Assembly (NCBI RefSeq): GCF_003790525.1
Contig: NZ_CP033635.1
DNA length: 64,000 nucleotides
Direction: 5' to 3' (one strand)
Origin: Escherichia coli
GTDB lineage: Bacteria; Pseudomonadota; Gammaproteobacteria; Enterobacterales; Enterobacteriaceae
Below are positions 25,292-32,100 of the stretch, piece after piece; positions within the stretch are counted from its first letter, which is position 1; each line of letters begins with the position of its first letter. Under the pieces are notes generated by a model. It made no database searches and had not been told where the DNA came from. It saw nothing but the letters and a program-made list of their open reading frames with translations. The translations under genes and the position numbers were made by a program.

Positions 25292-25302
25292 TTTTTGAGA
25301 TA

Positions 25303-25331
25303 AAAATGCCAGCCGATCGGGCTGGCATTTT
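25303..25331. terminator. Bidirectional terminator between macB and cspD
   Basis: AAAAATGCCAGCCGATCGGGCTGGCATTTTG: hairpin with A-run and T-run on either side. Confidence 0.6.
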
Positions 25332-25363
25332 GCCTTTAGGATGTACACAATGAGACAGAAGAG

Positions 25364-25588
25364 CTATGCGACTGCCGCTTCTACTTCGACGGGCACAATA
25401 ACACTGGCGTGATTGCCTTTTGGCCCCTGGTGGACATCAAACTGAACGGATTGTCCAGCTTTTAGCGTTCTGTAACCATCCATCTGAATGGTGGAATAAT
25501 GAGCGAAAATATCTTCGCCGCCGCCTTCAGGGCAGATGAAACCAAACCCTTTGGCATTGTTGAACCACTTAACAGTACCCTTTTCCAT
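25364..25588 (-). CDS. cspD: Stationary-phase cold-shock-domain protein
   Basis: MEKGTVKWFNNAKGFGFI... CSD; start at MEKGTV rather than the upstream ATG. Confidence 0.9.
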   Translation of the reverse strand: MEKGTVKWFNNAKGFGFICPEGGGEDIFAHYSTIQMDGYRTLKAGQSVQFDVHQGPKGNHASVIVPVEVEAAVA

Positions 25589-25945
25589 GCTTCGACATCC
25601 TTCGCAAATCTTATACAAGTAAGATGGAATAAACCGGGGTCAGAGAGGGGGCTGTTCAAAACCTCGCCAACTCTAGAAATACAATTTAGAGAATTAGGGC
25701 GAGCCGTCAAGCATTTGACAGGGGACAGGGGGCAGGTATGAATCAAAAATTTGAAGCAGTTAACGCTATTGACAGGAATGTGACAGATGTCGCTGATGCC
25801 AACGATAGATGATAGTTATTTATCATCTAGTGTTCGCGGGTGTTCGTGGTAGTGTTTTGTGTGCATTCATCGCTATGATTATAAAGGAAAATTTTGTTTT
25901 ACTTGTTCGCTCTTGTTCGTCACGGTTTGCCCTTGTACGATGCAC

Positions 25946-25992: not shown

Positions 25993-27231
25993 ATGAGCAG
26001 CGCAATTCATAGACTTAGCGACACTCTTTTACGAAAATTAAGCGGATCACCAACCACAAAAAACGCCTTTTTTAATGACGGTGGCAATCTTAGCGTAAGA
26101 CATTCCACCAGCGGCCTGTTAACCTGGTATTTCACTTACAGGGCCGGAACTGGCAGGCAGGTATCACCGGAACGCCTGAGACTGGGCAACTATCCCGATC
26201 TGAGCCTGAAAGCAGCCAGGGAAAAAGCGGCACAGTGTCGCGCCTGGCTGGCGGAGGGGAAAAATCCACGCCATGAGCTTAATCACACAGTGCAGGAAGC
26301 GTTAGCCCCCGTGACGGTTAAGGACGCGCTCACTTACTGGCTTGAGTCGTATGCGAAGGAAAAGCGCACTGACCACGAATCACTGAAAAGCCGTATCAAT
26401 AAGCACATAATCAGCCAGATTGGTGCTATGCCGCTGGATAAATGCGAGCTACGCCACTGGCTGGCCTGTTTTGACCAGCTTGCTAAGCGTAATCCGGTAT
26501 CAGCCGGCTTTTTGTTGCAGGTATGCAAACAGGCGCTTAAGTACTGCCGTAAACGTCGCTACGCCGTCAGTAACGTTCTTGATGATATGGTCGTAGGTGA
26601 TGTGGGAAAAAAAGCAGAAATAAGCGAGCGAGTGCTAACAAACAAGGAGCTTGGCGAGCTACTCCGCGCACTGGATGAAAAAATTTTCCCGCCGTACTAC
26701 AGCGCTTTAATTCGCCTTCTGATTGTCTTCGGATGCCGTACCACTGAGCTAAGACGCTCCGAGGTTCGGGAATGGGATTTTAAAGAAATGCTCTGGACTG
26801 TGCCGAAAGAACACAGCAAAACGAAGGTAGCAATATTCAGGCCAATACCGGAAGCGATCTTGCCGTTCGTCATGAAGCTGGTGGAGCAGAACAGGCACAC
26901 GGGCTTATTGCTTGGAGAACTGAAAGGGCAATCATCCGTAGCAGAGTACGGAAGAACGGCACACAGACGCATTAATCAAGCCCCCTGGTCGTTGCACGAC
27001 ATCCGGCACACATTTACAACCATGCTGAACGATTTAGGCGTGGATCCGCATATTGTCGAACAGCTTACTGCCCACCAGATGCCAGGAATGCAACGCGTCT
27101 ATAACCACTCCCGTTATCTCGATGCAAAGCGTGACGCTCTTAATCTATGGGTAGACCGTCTCGAGCTTCTCCAGAACAATGATGAAAAAATCGTTGTTAT
27201 GACCCCGCGAATTTACCCCCAAAATTCTTGA
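25993..27231 (+). CDS. int: Tyrosine integrase (P4-type)
   Basis: 412 aa; C-terminal catalytic region (...HDIRHTFTTML...YNHSRYLD) adjacent to the att repeat. Confidence 0.85.
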   Translation: MSSAIHRLSDTLLRKLSGSPTTKNAFFNDGGNLSVRHSTSGLLTWYFTYRAGTGRQVSPERLRLGNYPDLSLKAAREKAAQCRAWLAEGKNPRHELNHTVQEALAPVTVKDALTYWLESYAKEKRTDHESLKSRINKHIISQIGAMPLDKCELRHWLACFDQLAKRNPVSAGFLLQVCKQALKYCRKRRYAVSNVLDDMVVGDVGKKAEISERVLTNKELGELLRALDEKIFPPYYSALIRLLIVFGCRTTELRRSEVREWDFKEMLWTVPKEHSKTKVAIFRPIPEAILPFVMKLVEQNRHTGLLLGELKGQSSVAEYGRTAHRRINQAPWSLHDIRHTFTTMLNDLGVDPHIVEQLTAHQMPGMQRVYNHSRYLDAKRDALNLWVDRLELLQNNDEKIVVMTPRIYPQNS

Positions 27232-27650
27232 CAAATTACGGCTGTTTTTTCTTTAAGAGATTACAGCCGTGAATAGATCTTAGAATATCGGGGAATATCT
27301 GCAAATATCTTCTCTTTATATGTGTCAACTATCGAAAAAAATTGAAATGTCTTCTTCTGAGTTCTTATTCTCTGTTTCTTGATTGTTCCAACATCTGATG
27401 GTTTATCTATTTGTTTTTAATGAGGTAATTCAGGTGACATGCCAAATGACGACATTTTTTGTTGCGTCGCTTAAAAACTCGTGACACGATTTTAAACACT
27501 AACGAGCTTCTACGAACCTTAGCGAACAAAGCCTTTAGCATGGTTGTGTTTTTAATTTAAGAGGTGAAAAAGAATCTAAGTAATATCCGATCTCATATAT
27601 CTACAGCTAAGAGAAAAGTTTATATACGTAATTTTTATGTAGGTTTTTGT

Positions 27651-27860
27651 ATGCGTGAAATAAATGAAGATCGCGTAATCCGTGAGGATGAATGTCGTAA
27701 GTTAACTGGAGTGTGTCGCACTACACGCTACGAACTGGAGAAAAAAGGGAGCTTTCCGTCTCGCCGTAATCTTGGTGGGCGTTCTGTAGGTTGGCTGCTG
27801 TCCGAGGTTATGGAATGGGTTAAAAGCCGGGATCGCATTAATTCAGGCAAGGCAGCGTAA
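27651..27860 (+). CDS. alpA: AlpA-family phage transcriptional regulator (excisionase-like HTH)
   Basis: ~69 aa from MREINEDRV...; layout resembles AlpA/Vis-family proteins; position right after int. Confidence 0.65.
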   Translation: MREINEDRVIREDECRKLTGVCRTTRYELEKKGSFPSRRNLGGRSVGWLLSEVMEWVKSRDRINSGKAA

Positions 27861-27998
27861 AGGGGAGTATATGACACATAAAACAAAGGCGACCGGGGGC
27901 GGTCGCCAATGGGAAAACACTAAACATAAGCCCGAACATCATAGCGATTTGCTGGCTGGTGGGCAATGTGTCCAGTGTGGTGGCTTGCTGGTGGATTG

Positions 27999-28199
27999 TC
28001 AGCCAGGTGGGCGGTTTTTGTTTGCTTTTAAGCGCCGAGGGTATTTCTCGACAAAAGGATCAAGGGCGAACTTATCAGGAACTTTAAGATTTTCAGTGCG
28101 GGTTAATGCCTTATTTATTTCCCTGCGGGTTTTCTCACGCTGGCGCATGATAATTGATAATGCTTTATTTTGTAGTTCCTGGTTATTCATAATTATCAC
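27999..28199 (-). CDS. Hypothetical small basic protein
   Basis: 66 aa ORF directly downstream of the RHH gene on the same strand; may be co-transcribed. Confidence 0.35.
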   Translation of the reverse strand: MIIMNNQELQNKALSIIMRQREKTRREINKALTRTENLKVPDKFALDPFVEKYPRRLKANKNRPPG

Positions 28200-28247
28200 C
28201 TTTAAAACAATGCGCCGCAGTACCTCACACCACGGCGCTGATAGTGA

Positions 28248-28427
28248 TTATTCTGATTCTTTGGCCTTGCGGCGCTGGCGGTATTCAACTTCTCGCTTTA
28301 ATGCTGCTGTTACAAACTGCCCTGTACTTTCACCAGGCATTTTTACCGCCTCAACATTGTTCATAACTTCATGCGGAACCCTTGCCGCAACTGTTTGTGA
28401 TTTTGCGTTTACTGCTTTTGTCGCCAT
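28248..28427 (-). CDS. Ribbon-helix-helix (CopG/Arc-like) DNA-binding protein, 59 aa
   Basis: Hand-translated (below the 60-aa track cutoff): MATKAVNAKSQTVAARVPHEVMNNVEAVKMPGESTGQFVTAALKREVEYRQRRKAKESE; palindromic operators lie just upstream. Confidence 0.5.
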   Translation of the reverse strand: MATKAVNAKSQTVAARVPHEVMNNVEAVKMPGESTGQFVTAALKREVEYRQRRKAKESE

Positions 28428-28477
28428 GTTGTGTACCCCTTACAAAAAACAAATGCAGTATGCAGGAAAAAAAATAA

Positions 28478-28530
28478 GTGTTCAACACTTGGCGTGTTTA
28501 ACACCTAGGCTTAAATTGGTGTTCAACACC
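28478..28530. promoter_or_regulatory. Three palindromic operator-like sites
   Basis: GTGTTCAACAC (28478-28488), GTGTTTAACAC (28495-28505), GGTGTTCAACACC (28518-28530) upstream of the RHH gene. Confidence 0.45.
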
Positions 28531-29571
28531 TTGTTGATGAAAGGTGCAGAAACGACGAAACCCCGCACTGTTGGAGCAGTAACGGGGCTTCTAACCACCA
28601 ACGATAGAAAGCGTATCGAGGTAGCTATGTTAAATCATACCACACACCCGCAAGGGCGGGACCCGCACAACCTGAATAAATACATCTGGCGTTTTATCGC
28701 CCTGAGCACAGCACAACCACGCGTTATTACCATCGGGGCCACCAGCGAACAGGAAGCCCGCCAGCAATCCCCGACTGGCTGGGTGATGGTATTGGCCTCC
28801 AGATTTCATCATCGCTGTTTGTTTTTTGTCTGTCTCTCCTCGGGGTATGGGGTTGTGCCGTTCCAGCGTATGCGGGGCCGTTCACTGATGAAGCGCTCAA
28901 GCGGGAAATTATCGGATGGCGCGGGGGGCCGTACCCGTCGTTCCCGCCTCCGCTGGCGTACCACGCTGGCTTCGGTAATTTCCCCTGATTCGTTTATTTT
29001 CATAAAGAGTTACCTCCGTGCTCATCTGCTCTGGCGTTTTCTGTTTCTGATGAAGACTTACAGCGGTAGCGGCGTATCTTATCTTAAGATTTGGTTTAAT
29101 TTCTCGTGTCTGGCTTTAATGACGGCGCGTAATAATATCTGTCGCTGCTTTGTGTTTACGTCCAGAACTGTGGGGGATAATATGGATTTGTTCATGGTGC
29201 TCACCTGTAATGCATTGCGTCGTGATGCCTCATATCACGGCGGCGGTTATCGTTTTGTTCGGATTCGTCCCCTGATGAAATCCTCAAGCGGAAAATGTTC
29301 AGGGCGAGGTAATTCAGGAGGGACAGGGTTATTACTCATGCGCTCACGTTCCCTTGCGGCGCGTGCAGCATTCAGCTTTTGCAGGAGCACATCAAACGGC
29401 ACCCCCTTATCATTCATGGTCCCCCCTGTATATCCGTTGTTAACTGATGGTTACAGGTGCATTTTTCGCACAAACTATTTAATCAACACATCCGACCACA
29501 TTATCAGAGAGCCGGAATATACAGGGGCAATAATCCCGCATTTGCTGGCCTACGCACAGCTTACCGCTGAT

Positions 29572-29859
29572 ATGGCACTGAATGAGGCCAAAGCCATCCT
29601 GATTGCTGATTGTGAATATGGGGTTATGCGTGATGATCGTTTTAATGCCCTGAAACAGGAATTTGATGGCACACCGGAAGATACAGATATTGCGCTGTTA
29701 TGTGTTGCTGACATGGTAAAAGCTGCATGTTTTTTACTGGAAACCGCCGAACATTCAGGAACGGGTAGCGATATTCTCAATATTGCGTCGGACTATGCTG
29801 AATATGTGGCAGAGGCGCGTTACAGAAGAAAATTCCAGGAGGTGGTTAGCCATGAATAA
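29572..29859 (+). CDS. Hypothetical protein (start uncertain; TTG at 29542 is an alternative)
   Basis: Only protein-like portion of the long stop-free frame; ends with an AGGAGG RBS for the next gene. Confidence 0.4.
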   Translation: MALNEAKAILIADCEYGVMRDDRFNALKQEFDGTPEDTDIALLCVADMVKAACFLLETAEHSGTGSDILNIASDYAEYVAEARYRRKFQEVVSHE

Positions 29860-30055: not shown

Positions 30056-30355
30056 ATGAAAAAGAAAAATTCTGGCTTTACTGCCAGCGGCCTCGCTCGG
30101 CCTGAAATCCGTCCCGGCTATATTTTCCGTGATAACTACGGCGGTACGGTAACGATTAAAGGCGTGGCAGAACGGCGCATCACCTACCGCCATGAAGGTT
30201 ACGAATATGATTGCGTGATGCCTGTTTATCAGTTTGTGCGTGATTTTTCTCTTGTGCAGGCCGTACCGCGTAACGTGCCCACCAGCAGGGAGAAAGCACG
30301 CGCCAATATTCAGAAGATGAAAACCATGATTAACGGATTCAGGGGTAAAAAATGA
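30056..30355 (+). CDS. Hypothetical protein
   Basis: 99 aa ORF; 4-bp overlap with the primase start. Confidence 0.5.
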   Translation: MKKKNSGFTASGLARPEIRPGYIFRDNYGGTVTIKGVAERRITYRHEGYEYDCVMPVYQFVRDFSLVQAVPRNVPTSREKARANIQKMKTMINGFRGKK

Positions 30356-32100
30356 AACTGGCACCGAACGTAAAACTGCAGTCACGCGGCATAAAACACA
30401 AAGGAACTGAAGTCATTATTTTTGCGGGTAGTGATGCCTGGGCACACGCGAAACAATGGCAGGAACATGACGCGCGTATGGCCGGAGATAATGAGCCTCC
30501 TGTGTGGCTTGGGGAGCAGCAGTTATCCGAACTGGATAAGCTGCAAATTGTGCCGGAAGGCAGAAAATCCGTGCGTATATTCAGGGCCGGATATCTTGCG
30601 CCAGTAATGATAAAGGCGATTGGTCAGAAGCTGGCGGCGGCTGGCGTACAGGACGCAAATTTTTACCCCGAAGGAATGCACGGTCAGAAGTGTGAAAACT
30701 GGCGGCGTTATCTGAATGCTGAGCGTGAAAATATTGCTGCAGGGCTTACCATGCCGGAGCAGAAAAATACGCAACTGGCACAAATGGCAGACAGTGAGCG
30801 CGCACAGATGCTTGCTGGTCGATTTGATGGCGTTTGTGTGCATCCGGAAAGTGAAATCGTTCACGTATGGCGCGGCGGGGTATGGTGTCCGGTCAGCACA
30901 ATGGAACTGAGCCGCGAAATGGTGGCGATCTATTCAGAGCACAGGGCCACTTTCAGCAAGCGCGTAATCAGTAACGCCGTGGAAGCGTTAAAAGTTATTG
31001 CCGAACCAATGGGCGAGCCGTCCGGCGATTTGCTGCCGTTCGCCAATGGTGCGCTTGACCTGAAAACGGGGGAATTTTCCCCGCACACGCCGGAGAACTG
31101 GATCACCACGCACAACGGCATTGAGTACACGCCACCAGCACCTGGGGAGAACATCCGCGATAACGCGCCAAACTTTCATAAATGGCTTGAGCACGCAGCC
31201 GGAAAAGACCCGCGCAAGATGATGCGTATATGTGCCGCGCTGTACATGATTATGGCGAACCGGTACGACTGGCAGATGTTTATTGAGGCCACCGGAGACG
31301 GCGGGAGCGGTAAAAGTACATTCACACACATAGCCAGCCTTCTGGCAGGGAAACAGAACACGGTAAGTGCTGAGATGACATCGCTTGATGATGCTGGTGG
31401 GCGTGCGCAGGTTGTCGGGAGTCGTCTTATCGTCCTGGCAGACCAGCCGAAATATACAGGCGAAGGAACGGGCATCAAGAAAATCACGGGCGGTGACCCC
31501 GTGGAAATTAACCCGAAATACGAAAAGCGTTTCACGGCTGTAATCAGGGCGGTGGTGCTGGCGACCAACAATAACCCGATGATATTCACCGAACGGGCCG
31601 GAGGTGTGGCACGTCGTCGCGTGATTTTTCGTTTCGACAATATCGTCAGTGAGGCTGAAAAAGACAGGGAGCTACCGGAAAGGATTGCGGCTGAAATCCC
31701 CGTCATTATCCGCCGATTACTGGCGAACTTTGCAGACCCTGAAAAGGCGCGGGCTTTACTACTGGAACAGCGTGACGGTGATGAAGCACTGGCGATAAAG
31801 CAGCAAACGGATCCGGTTATTGAGTTTTGCCAGTTCCTGAATTTTCTGGAGGAAGCACGTGGCCTGATGATGGGTGGCGGTGGCGATTCCGTGAAGTACA
31901 CGACCAGAAACAGCCTGTACCGCGTCTATCTGGCGTTTATGGCATACGCAGGCAGGAGCAAACCGCTGAACGTGGCTGAGTTCAGCAAGGCCATGAAGCC
32001 AGCGGCGAAAGTTTACGGACATGAATATATAACGCGCAGGATTAAAGGGGTTACGCAAACCAACGTGACAACAACAGACGACTGCGACGCGTTTTTATAG
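30352..32100 (+). CDS. P4-family phage/plasmid primase-helicase-like replication protein
   Basis: 582 aa; C-terminal NTPase with Walker A GDGGSGKST and LADQP Walker B-like motif typical of the P4 alpha / D5 family. Confidence 0.8.
   Translation: MKLAPNVKLQSRGIKHKGTEVIIFAGSDAWAHAKQWQEHDARMAGDNEPPVWLGEQQLSELDKLQIVPEGRKSVRIFRAGYLAPVMIKAIGQKLAAAGVQDANFYPEGMHGQKCENWRRYLNAERENIAAGLTMPEQKNTQLAQMADSERAQMLAGRFDGVCVHPESEIVHVWRGGVWCPVSTMELSREMVAIYSEHRATFSKRVISNAVEALKVIAEPMGEPSGDLLPFANGALDLKTGEFSPHTPENWITTHNGIEYTPPAPGENIRDNAPNFHKWLEHAAGKDPRKMMRICAALYMIMANRYDWQMFIEATGDGGSGKSTFTHIASLLAGKQNTVSAEMTSLDDAGGRAQVVGSRLIVLADQPKYTGEGTGIKKITGGDPVEINPKYEKRFTAVIRAVVLATNNNPMIFTERAGGVARRRVIFRFDNIVSEAEKDRELPERIAAEIPVIIRRLLANFADPEKARALLLEQRDGDEALAIKQQTDPVIEFCQFLNFLEEARGLMMGGGGDSVKYTTRNSLYRVYLAFMAYAGRSKPLNVAEFSKAMKPAAKVYGHEYITRRIKGVTQTNVTTTDDCDAFL

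Follow-up and report, generated by a model that had tools for sequence, protein, structure and literature searches.

A minus-strand open reading frame (ORF) of 59 codons in a ~10 kb island of Escherichia coli, here called ORF1, probably encodes the operator-binding repressor of a satellite of the EcCICFT073-type phage-inducible chromosomal island (PICI) or P4-like class, as judged from sequence comparison. The island lies between cspD and clpS in the stretch of 64,000 nucleotides that we analyzed (contig NZ_CP033635.1 of RefSeq assembly GCF_003790525.1; hereafter the window). ORF1 is predicted to adopt the ribbon-helix-helix (RHH) fold, three palindromic boxes lie upstream of it, and the boxes of related islands vary together with the strand residues of its homologues. 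An earlier note on this DNA had suggested that ORF1 and a small basic ORF behind it, ORF2, form either the repressor module of the island or a small toxin-antitoxin (TA) pair. The comparative evidence strongly supports a repressor module that consists of ORF1 alone; it gives no support for ORF2 as a part of it.

Gram-negative PICIs are switched on by AlpA, and their founding paper described the repressor as not known. We found no link of an RHH protein to PICIs or P4-like satellites in the literature searched. ORF1 offers a concrete candidate, with predicted operators, promoters and specificity residues, which is also present in EcCICFT073. What would be new is an RHH repressor for Gram-negative PICIs, whereas repression of the Arc/Mnt/CopG type is known. 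Gram-negative PICIs and P4-like satellites are found in a large share of Enterobacterales and mobilize virulence and defence genes.

ORF1 and its predicted ribbon-helix-helix fold

ORF1 starts with ATG and is annotated by the NCBI Prokaryotic Genome Annotation Pipeline (PGAP), with the RefSeq entry WP_000201463.1, ‘YlcI/YnfO family protein’; RefSeq and PGAP gene names are taken here from E. coli genomes that are identical in the region. The earlier note was right about this frame, but its description as a gene missed by the ORF track applies to that track only, where a 60-aa cut-off was the sole cause of its absence; PGAP had already annotated both ORF1 and ORF2. The product passes the NCBIfam model NF041551 (YlcI/YnfO; 59.7 bits, cut-off 30, E-value 2.1e-16) and matches phrog_949, a group with no assigned function. 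Its homologues form 74 clusters in Enterobacterales, from the genera Escherichia, Salmonella, Klebsiella, Pectobacterium, Serratia, Proteus and Xenorhabdus. Because substitutions across 22 homologues are distributed over codon positions 1, 2 and 3 as 0.306, 0.195 and 0.524, we take ORF1 to be coding on the minus strand, and by this measure it is clearly a real gene. A tblastn search with ORF1 against 50,697 phage records of INPHARED, a collection that we take to include P4, yielded no match, so that at this sensitivity ORF1 appears to represent a satellite-specific branch of the YlcI/YnfO (DUF3950) family.

The literature searched assigns this family no function, and the role proposed here is the first functional hypothesis for it. 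The E. coli K-12 members YlcI (prophage DLP12) and YnfO (Qin) have the strand-helix-helix layout of ORF1. However, YlcI is only 22% identical to ORF1, and its gene is located in a lambdoid prophage, divergent from nohD, whereas ORF1 belongs to a phage satellite. In K-12 (locus L044, 4252-5380), ylcI, the founding member of the family, and the Nu1-like terminase gene nohD diverge over 388 bp, a region within or near which cos presumably lies. It is a possibility that phage-borne members of the family regulate or mark the packaging region.

In ORF1, a strand (residues 10-18) is followed by helix A (19-28), the turn G32-E33-S34 and helix B (35-58, extending to 59 in the AlphaFold2 (AF2) model). 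The turn has the form G-x-S/T/N that opens helix B in RHH proteins and touches backbone phosphate there, with E33 and S34 invariant and G32 invariant in 41 homologues, nearly so in 40. Since RHH proteins fold only as dimers, we modelled two copies of ORF1 with AF2, joined by a 20-residue linker and provided with a paired alignment. In the resulting model each half has the β-α-α topology of the ~45-residue RHH fold, with a predicted local distance difference test score (pLDDT) of ~90 in the core, and the halves are intertwined through an antiparallel N-terminal ribbon. The AF2 monomer has both helices formed and the strand segment as coil. The best structural match of the modelled dimer is TraY of the F plasmid, in which two RHH units likewise form one DNA-binding module; TraY differs in that both repeats are fused within one chain; it functions in the relaxosome at oriT and is 12-14% identical to ORF1. 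The models indicate that ORF1 is very probably a small RHH DNA-binding protein. The earlier note had called it CopG/Arc-like and had staked this on the prediction of an RHH fold; the linked dimer provides that fold, and the call stands at this level, although no Pfam RHH model matches.

Putative operator boxes and their co-variation with ORF1

Upstream of ORF1, at a distance of 51-102 bp, the palindrome GTGTTNAACAC occurs in three exact copies that start at 28478, 28494 and 28519. No further exact copy exists in the 64 kb, for which 0.04 are expected, and none of 100 shuffles reached three. This confirms the palindromes next to ORF1 that the earlier note had seen. The same three boxes recur at the same offsets in Salmonella and Edwardsiella. 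In our comparative set (29 loci, one genome per species, plus E. coli and Salmonella loci), the ORF1 homologue is the first leftward gene in every island examined, 180-240 bp from a divergent operon that starts with an Icd-like gene, followed by DUF4222 and a replicase. The intergenic scaffold can be aligned across genera and contains two or three 11-bp boxes whose offsets are constant, as a rule -102, -77 and -32 relative to the ATG of the ORF1 homologue, with the third box at -61 in the window, Salmonella and Edwardsiella. In other islands, scaffold and box positions are conserved but the box cores differ, the flanks GTG...CAC being mostly constant.

From this conservation across loci we placed two promoters in the window, the leftward P_L and the rightward P_R (Table 1). 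At -35/-36 relative to the ATG, 22 of 26 loci have a leftward hexamer C/TATACT, or 24 if the variants TATAAT and TATTCT are counted, and the rightward order of TTGA(C/A)G, a 17-18-nt spacer with O2, TAnnnT and O1 is likewise kept in 22 of 26. The third box directly follows the leftward hexamer in most islands, whereas in the window it lies over the predicted -35 of P_L. Boxes in the spacer and over the start site represent a classic geometry of repression, and because they occupy these places we infer that ORF1 represses the replication operon and itself.

Sorting 22 loci by eye gave eight box classes, which are predicted by residues 11-15 of the ORF1 homologue, with residues 12 and 14 fixed within each class. 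The strand SQT(V/L/I)AA goes with the box GTGTTnAACAC, S(K/R)KLEA with GTGTCAGCCAC, SQSLKS and SQALKA (the latter in EcCICFT073) with GTGTGGyCCAC, SQKLQ(A/T) with GTGGAyTCCAC, SQKMSA with CTGGCrCCCA, SQKIQA with TGGAkkmCA and SKRFDV with GTGTCGGACAC. S10 and R16 never vary and positions 13, 15 and 17 are always hydrophobic; together with the variability of positions 12 and 14, this fits a strand with one face on DNA. In Mantel tests, box similarity correlated with the strand (r 0.43, p 2e-4) and more so with the N-terminal arm (r 0.69, p 2e-4). The correlation with the strand persisted when the helices were accounted for (partial r 0.39, p 2e-4), whereas that with the helices vanished when the strand was accounted for (0.00). 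As a control for linkage, leader DNA at a similar distance beyond the boxes gave r 0.08 (p 0.22).

In the mechanism that we propose, the paired strands (residues 10-18) of ORF1 dimers would enter the major groove at the three boxes. The invariant S10 and R16 would read the GTG/CAC flanks, and the core would be recognized by residues 12 and 14 and by the N-terminal arm; this could create ‘immunity’ classes among related islands. O2 and O1 would bracket the -10 of P_R, the predicted promoter of icd, DUF4222 and primase, so that the replication genes would stay silent while these boxes are occupied. Through O3, which overlaps the predicted -35 of P_L, ORF1 would also limit its own synthesis. ORF2, behind a hairpin that may act as an attenuator, would not be needed by ORF1. 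The islands would then also hold a natural set of orthogonal small repressor-operator pairs.

Several observations weigh against this reading. On the side of the protein, the dimer was imposed through a synthetic linker, a Foldseek search of the AF2 monomer against the PDB returned nothing significant, Pfam RHH models (RHH_1, Arc and others) matched neither ORF1 nor any of 41 homologues at E ≤1, and a profile of these homologues had no match among PDB sequences; it is the predicted fold that places ORF1 in the RHH (Arc/MetJ/CopG) superfamily, and not any sequence model. On the side of the DNA, P_L and P_R each agree with the consensus at 8 of 12 positions in the window and fell below the threshold of a generic promoter scan. 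The recognition code is not strictly one-to-one: loci L021 and L029 have similar boxes and different strand residues, and L037 and L039 have the same strand residues and boxes that differ in 2-3 core bases. The boxes are also physically linked to the 5' end of ORF1, and part of the co-variation could be due to joint inheritance. Finally, as locus L009 holds both the module and the RNAs of P4-type immunity (see below), ORF1 need not be the sole immunity factor.

Of the alternatives to a repressor, the one that survives best is that ORF1 binds the boxes and acts there as a TraY-like architectural or accessory protein, or as an activator. The relaxosome role of its best structural neighbor, the position of the distantly related ylcI opposite a terminase gene and the fact that the promoters are inferred would agree with this. 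However, box positions relative to the -35 and -10 hexamers are kept in 22 of 26 loci, the module stays the same with each of the replicases (D5/DUF5906, DUF927 or AAA_25) and irrespective of the packaging genes, and boxes that fill a spacer and cover a start are what repression would lead one to expect, so that we regard a non-repressor as unlikely.

Less likely still is that another factor (AlpA, the integrase, the Icd-like protein, the replicase or a host protein) binds the boxes and that ORF1 is merely co-inherited with them. The boxes are only 50-100 bp from the co-varying codons, and the N-terminal arm, whose codons are nearest, correlates best. Yet the leader DNA, equally near on the far side, does not co-vary, and the co-varying residues 12 and 14 are alternate positions that would face DNA in an RHH strand, between the invariant S10 and R16. 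Nor do AlpA, the replicase type or the Icd N-terminus track the box class. AlpA proteins that share just 23-42% identity with that of the window accompany the same boxes, and AlpA proteins at 61% identity accompany different ones, while Icd-like N-termini are alike across classes; we therefore rejected AlpA and Icd as binders. The same boxes are also found with all three replicase types, on which ground we rejected a role as replication iterons.

The mechanism assumed for ORF1, which we continue to regard as a repressor, is of the same type as that of Arc and Mnt of phage P22 (immI), CopG of pMV158 and omega of pSM19035. These have no detectable sequence relationship to ORF1, which differs from them in being located between alpA and the replication operon of a satellite, antisense to a long frame. 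In Gram-positive PICIs (the Staphylococcus aureus pathogenicity islands, SaPIs), the island is silenced by the repressor Stl/Rpr, whose gene diverges from the excision/replication operon (PMC6092414); ORF1 corresponds to it in position and presumed logic, but is an unrelated and far smaller protein.

The same module is found in the model island EcCICFT073 itself (locus L046, 5526-7053; E. coli CFT073, NC_004431.1 1379525-1381052). It comprises alpA, a 62-aa ORF2-type gene, a 59-aa YlcI/YnfO gene, boxes (GTGTGGCCCAC, twice, and TGTCCCCCAC) and an Icd-like gene, all spanned by a frame of 428 aa. The RefSeq tags of its small genes, C_RS30120 and C_RS30800, are high-numbered and out of series with their neighbors, which suggests that these genes were added by later re-annotation.

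The island and its long antisense frame

Positions 27500-29000 are 100% identical to E. coli strain TUM1886, and part of this 1.5-kb region is matched in 1441 of 5426 complete E. coli genomes. The island genes are, in order, int, alpA, ORF1/ORF2 (minus strand), Icd-like, DUF4222, D5-type primase, SSB, PerC, ProQ/FinO and TerS. This is the gene order of Gram-negative PICIs (int-alpA, replication, packaging/late genes, at a fixed site) and nearly gene-for-gene that of EcCICFT073. Just outside the island, a sub-threshold match to the cspA thermoregulator RNA (25300-25693, minus strand; 41.6 bits, gathering score 78) covers cspD and its 5' leader.

Table 1. Features of the island and of the ORF1 region, in window coordinates (SD, Shine-Dalgarno sequence)
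Feature	Position	Strand	Remarks
Tyrosine integrase	25993-27231		
alpA	27651..27860	+	Known PICI activator; Pfam PF05930, E 4e-16; convergent with the ORF1-ORF2 unit
662-codon eta-like ORF	27871..29859	+	ATG 10 nt past the alpA stop; SD GGGGAG
Terminator-like hairpin	27888..27907	-	Between alpA and ORF2; GC-rich, T-run on minus strand only
ORF2	27999..28190	-	63-aa basic protein (66 aa from GTG 28199); WP_001064590.1, ‘hypothetical protein’
Conserved GC-rich hairpin and AUUGUUUU	28212..28238	-	Between ORF1 and ORF2; candidate attenuator/terminator
ORF1	28248..28427	-	YlcI/YnfO-family protein, 59 aa, predicted RHH repressor
P_L (predicted promoter)	28457..28485	-	-35 TTGAAC (28485->28480), 17-nt spacer, -10 CATACT (28462->28457)
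Box O3	28478..28488		GTGTTCAACAC; overlaps predicted P_L -35
P_R (predicted promoter)	28489..28517	+	-35 TTGGCG (28489-28494), 17-nt spacer with O2, -10 TAAATT (28512-28517); putative equivalent of P4 PLE
Box O2	28494..28504		GTGTTTAACAC; fills P_R spacer, abuts P_R -35
Box O1	28519..28529		GTGTTCAACAC; begins 2 nt past P_R -10, covering the expected start site
Conserved hairpin in P_R leader	28558..28590	+	Followed by near-invariant UCUAACCAC
Icd-like (Kil-like) coding segment	28627..28806	+	First gene of rightward operon; NCBIfam NF033153, E 8e-15
Three ORF2-type small ORFs	28809..29417	-	29417->29247 (56 aa), 29204->29079 (41 aa, truncated), 29003->28809 (64 aa)
D5-type primase	30352-32100		

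On the plus strand, a frame without stop codons extends from 27790 to 29859 (689 codons). Only two open stretches in the window are longer, and its probability from base composition is ~3e-15. The frame passes antisense through ORF2, ORF1, the operators and the leader and then enters icd in frame. PGAP reports its distal 477 codons (28426-29859) as one ‘Icd-like protein’, a call that is probably over-extended. The same antisense frame, in wobble register with ORF1, has no stop codon over 90-689 codons in each of the 29 loci and mostly closes at the icd stop or shortly past the icd start; in 11 loci with alpA adjacent, it starts -8 to +70 nt from the alpA stop. In the antisense stretches its translation is junk-like, and the codon-position pattern shows no protein-level selection. 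PGAP calls some of these long ORFs BRO-N proteins, but a Bro-N domain at the start of the EcCICFT073 ORF was unsupported by Pfam. Between the long ORF and DUF4222, RefSeq lists a ‘frameshifted’ hypothetical pseudogene in an identical genome (29852-30051, plus strand).

The arrangement resembles the immunity region of P4 (PLL-vis-eta/kil, with internal PLE), where an alpA/vis homologue is also followed by a long ORF with an early promoter inside it and a Kil/Icd-like gene in frame at its end. According to a passage in PMC10111431, citing Forti 1999, translation of eta lets transcripts from the upstream late promoter of P4 escape immunity-specific termination. The difference lies in the immunity factor: P4 has the CI RNA and seqA, the window instead a candidate protein repressor gene with its operators, antisense inside the long ORF. 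RNAs of the C4/isrK (CI/seqA) type had no Rfam match in the window even at E ≤10, and the RNA signature of P4-type immunity is therefore not found there.

Elsewhere in the set, Rfam C4 and isrK both score above gathering in L009 (3492-3677), L003 (4584-4774) and L004 (3829-4589). In L003 and L004 there is no RHH gene, and in L009 the RNAs are located downstream of the RHH-controlled promoter. We thus rejected the idea that the RHH protein outright replaces P4-type RNA immunity; since L009 carries both, protein and RNA control can coexist.

From the layout of the window we tentatively propose a broader role, which we hold to be possible and clearly less likely than a repressor function of ORF1 as such: the RHH protein may be the master repressor so far missing from a large class of Gram-negative PICIs and P4-like satellites, EcCICFT073 among them, acting within a convergent overlapping switch. 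The repressor gene and its operators would lie antisense in an eta-like frame whose translation is coupled to that of alpA. Once induced by a helper, AlpA would drive transcription and translation through the repressor gene, head-on into ORF1 transcription, so that the repressor would be silenced by collision or antisense, the operators bypassed, and icd and the replication genes expressed. The hairpin at 27888-27907 has no T-run for rightward transcripts from alpA, which is consistent with such read-through, and it is the probable end of the leftward unit. If true, the box/strand classes, of which there are at least eight, would be immunity groups that let several islands coexist in a cell.

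The P_R leader contains a hairpin for which 20 loci yield a consensus fold of 16 pairs, 13 of them maintained through two-sided changes. Read from the minus strand, this hairpin resembles a terminator just upstream of the operators. Rfam has no family for it. A second small hairpin follows UCUAACCAC beside the icd SD (leader 28558-28618).

ORF2 and its hairpin cassette

In RefSeq, ORF2 starts at ATG 28190, behind a good SD (AAAGGTGAT-N5-ATG) and 57 bp from ORF1; if it is read from GTG 28199, it corresponds to the 66-aa basic ORF at a distance of 48 bp that the earlier note had described, and its product is indeed basic (pI 10.7, 16 K+R vs 7 D+E). Its homologues form 7 clusters, all from E. coli, and an exhaustive profile search of 1.8 billion representatives found 25 clusters, all of 41-100 aa. 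The family has an MTN-EL start, a basic helical stretch, a proline-rich linker and the C-terminal motif [KR]-F-A-L-[ED]-x-F-[VL]-x-K-Y; neither ORF2 nor its family has an informative match in Pfam, PHROG, PADLOC or the PDB. Substitutions at the three codon positions are 0.409, 0.323 and 0.548 (three sequences), which suggests that ORF2 is probably coding, on thinner evidence than ORF1.

Each ORF2-type gene is preceded by the same hairpin and by CATTGyTTTACAGG-N-ATG. In the window this hairpin (GCGCCGTGGTGTGAGGTACTGCGGCGC) has 12 pairs, a minimum free energy of -21.5 kcal/mol and a z-score of -2.6, and it forms the 5' part of a repeated cassette of hairpin, SD and FALExF ORF. The same hairpin follows both RHH genes of L007 and the one of EcCICFT073. 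Bases 210-261 of our query, which hold the hairpin and the last ORF1 codons, account for most matches, in ~1100 of 5426 E. coli genomes. There is one cassette in the window and one in EcCICFT073; L007 has two, both behind an RHH gene, and L004 has four in tandem.

We consider it rather doubtful that ORF2 is no gene, but a shadow of the long plus-strand frame or a repeated RNA or DNA element. All ORF2-type ORFs are antisense to the long frame and share its wobble positions, the Leu of the motif is always CTT, and only 11 of 5426 E. coli genomes contain an identical gene. On the other hand, every copy has its own SD, ATG and conserved MTN-EL start, the motif is kept through differing codons and flanks, and PGAP calls the gene; the translation of the plus frame is rich in Cys, Ser and Arg, unlike a folded protein, and codon position 2 varies least on the minus strand, though this signal is weak.

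ORF2 is most likely a separately evolving, optional accessory gene that ORF1 does not need for its function, and the functional pair proposed in the earlier note is not supported. Most islands with an RHH gene lack an ORF2-type gene; in Salmonella, alpA directly follows the RHH gene, which stands alone in the non-E. coli loci, and none of the non-E. coli loci examined has an ORF2-type gene. Conversely, ORF2-type genes occur one to four times in islands without an RHH gene (L003-L006). Because the two are not obligate partners, we also rejected the TA alternative. A type II pair of an RHH antitoxin followed by a small basic toxin is thus very improbable: gene order and putative autoregulatory palindromes do resemble many TA loci, and the RHH gene precedes an ORF2-type gene in EcCICFT073 and twice in L007 as well, but there is no conserved two-gene unit, ORF2 matches no toxin or defence family (Pfam, PADLOC, PHROG function, PDB), the ~9 basic residues past helix B of ORF1 are too few for a toxin-binding tail, and the 57-nt gap with its terminator-like hairpin speaks against tight coupling. 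Our best guess, a weakly supported one, is that ORF2 is expressed at a low level through the attenuator and that its motif docks on a host or helper protein.

The three further ORF2-type ORFs of the window (Table 1) are without RefSeq annotation and lie inside the expected rightward operon. They are diverged, with the motif F-P-L-E-[DR]-F, and one is preceded by a diverged cassette hairpin.

In one E. coli island (L007, 4001-5125), a module of RHH gene, hairpin and FALExF gene is directly followed by another of the same make-up. The RHH protein of the latter is a very distant YlcI/YnfO relative (E-value 5e-4, below the cut-off), and its gene has a palindrome of its own (TAATGTGTATAT/ATAAACACATTA) and, upstream, its own copy of the leader-type hairpin.

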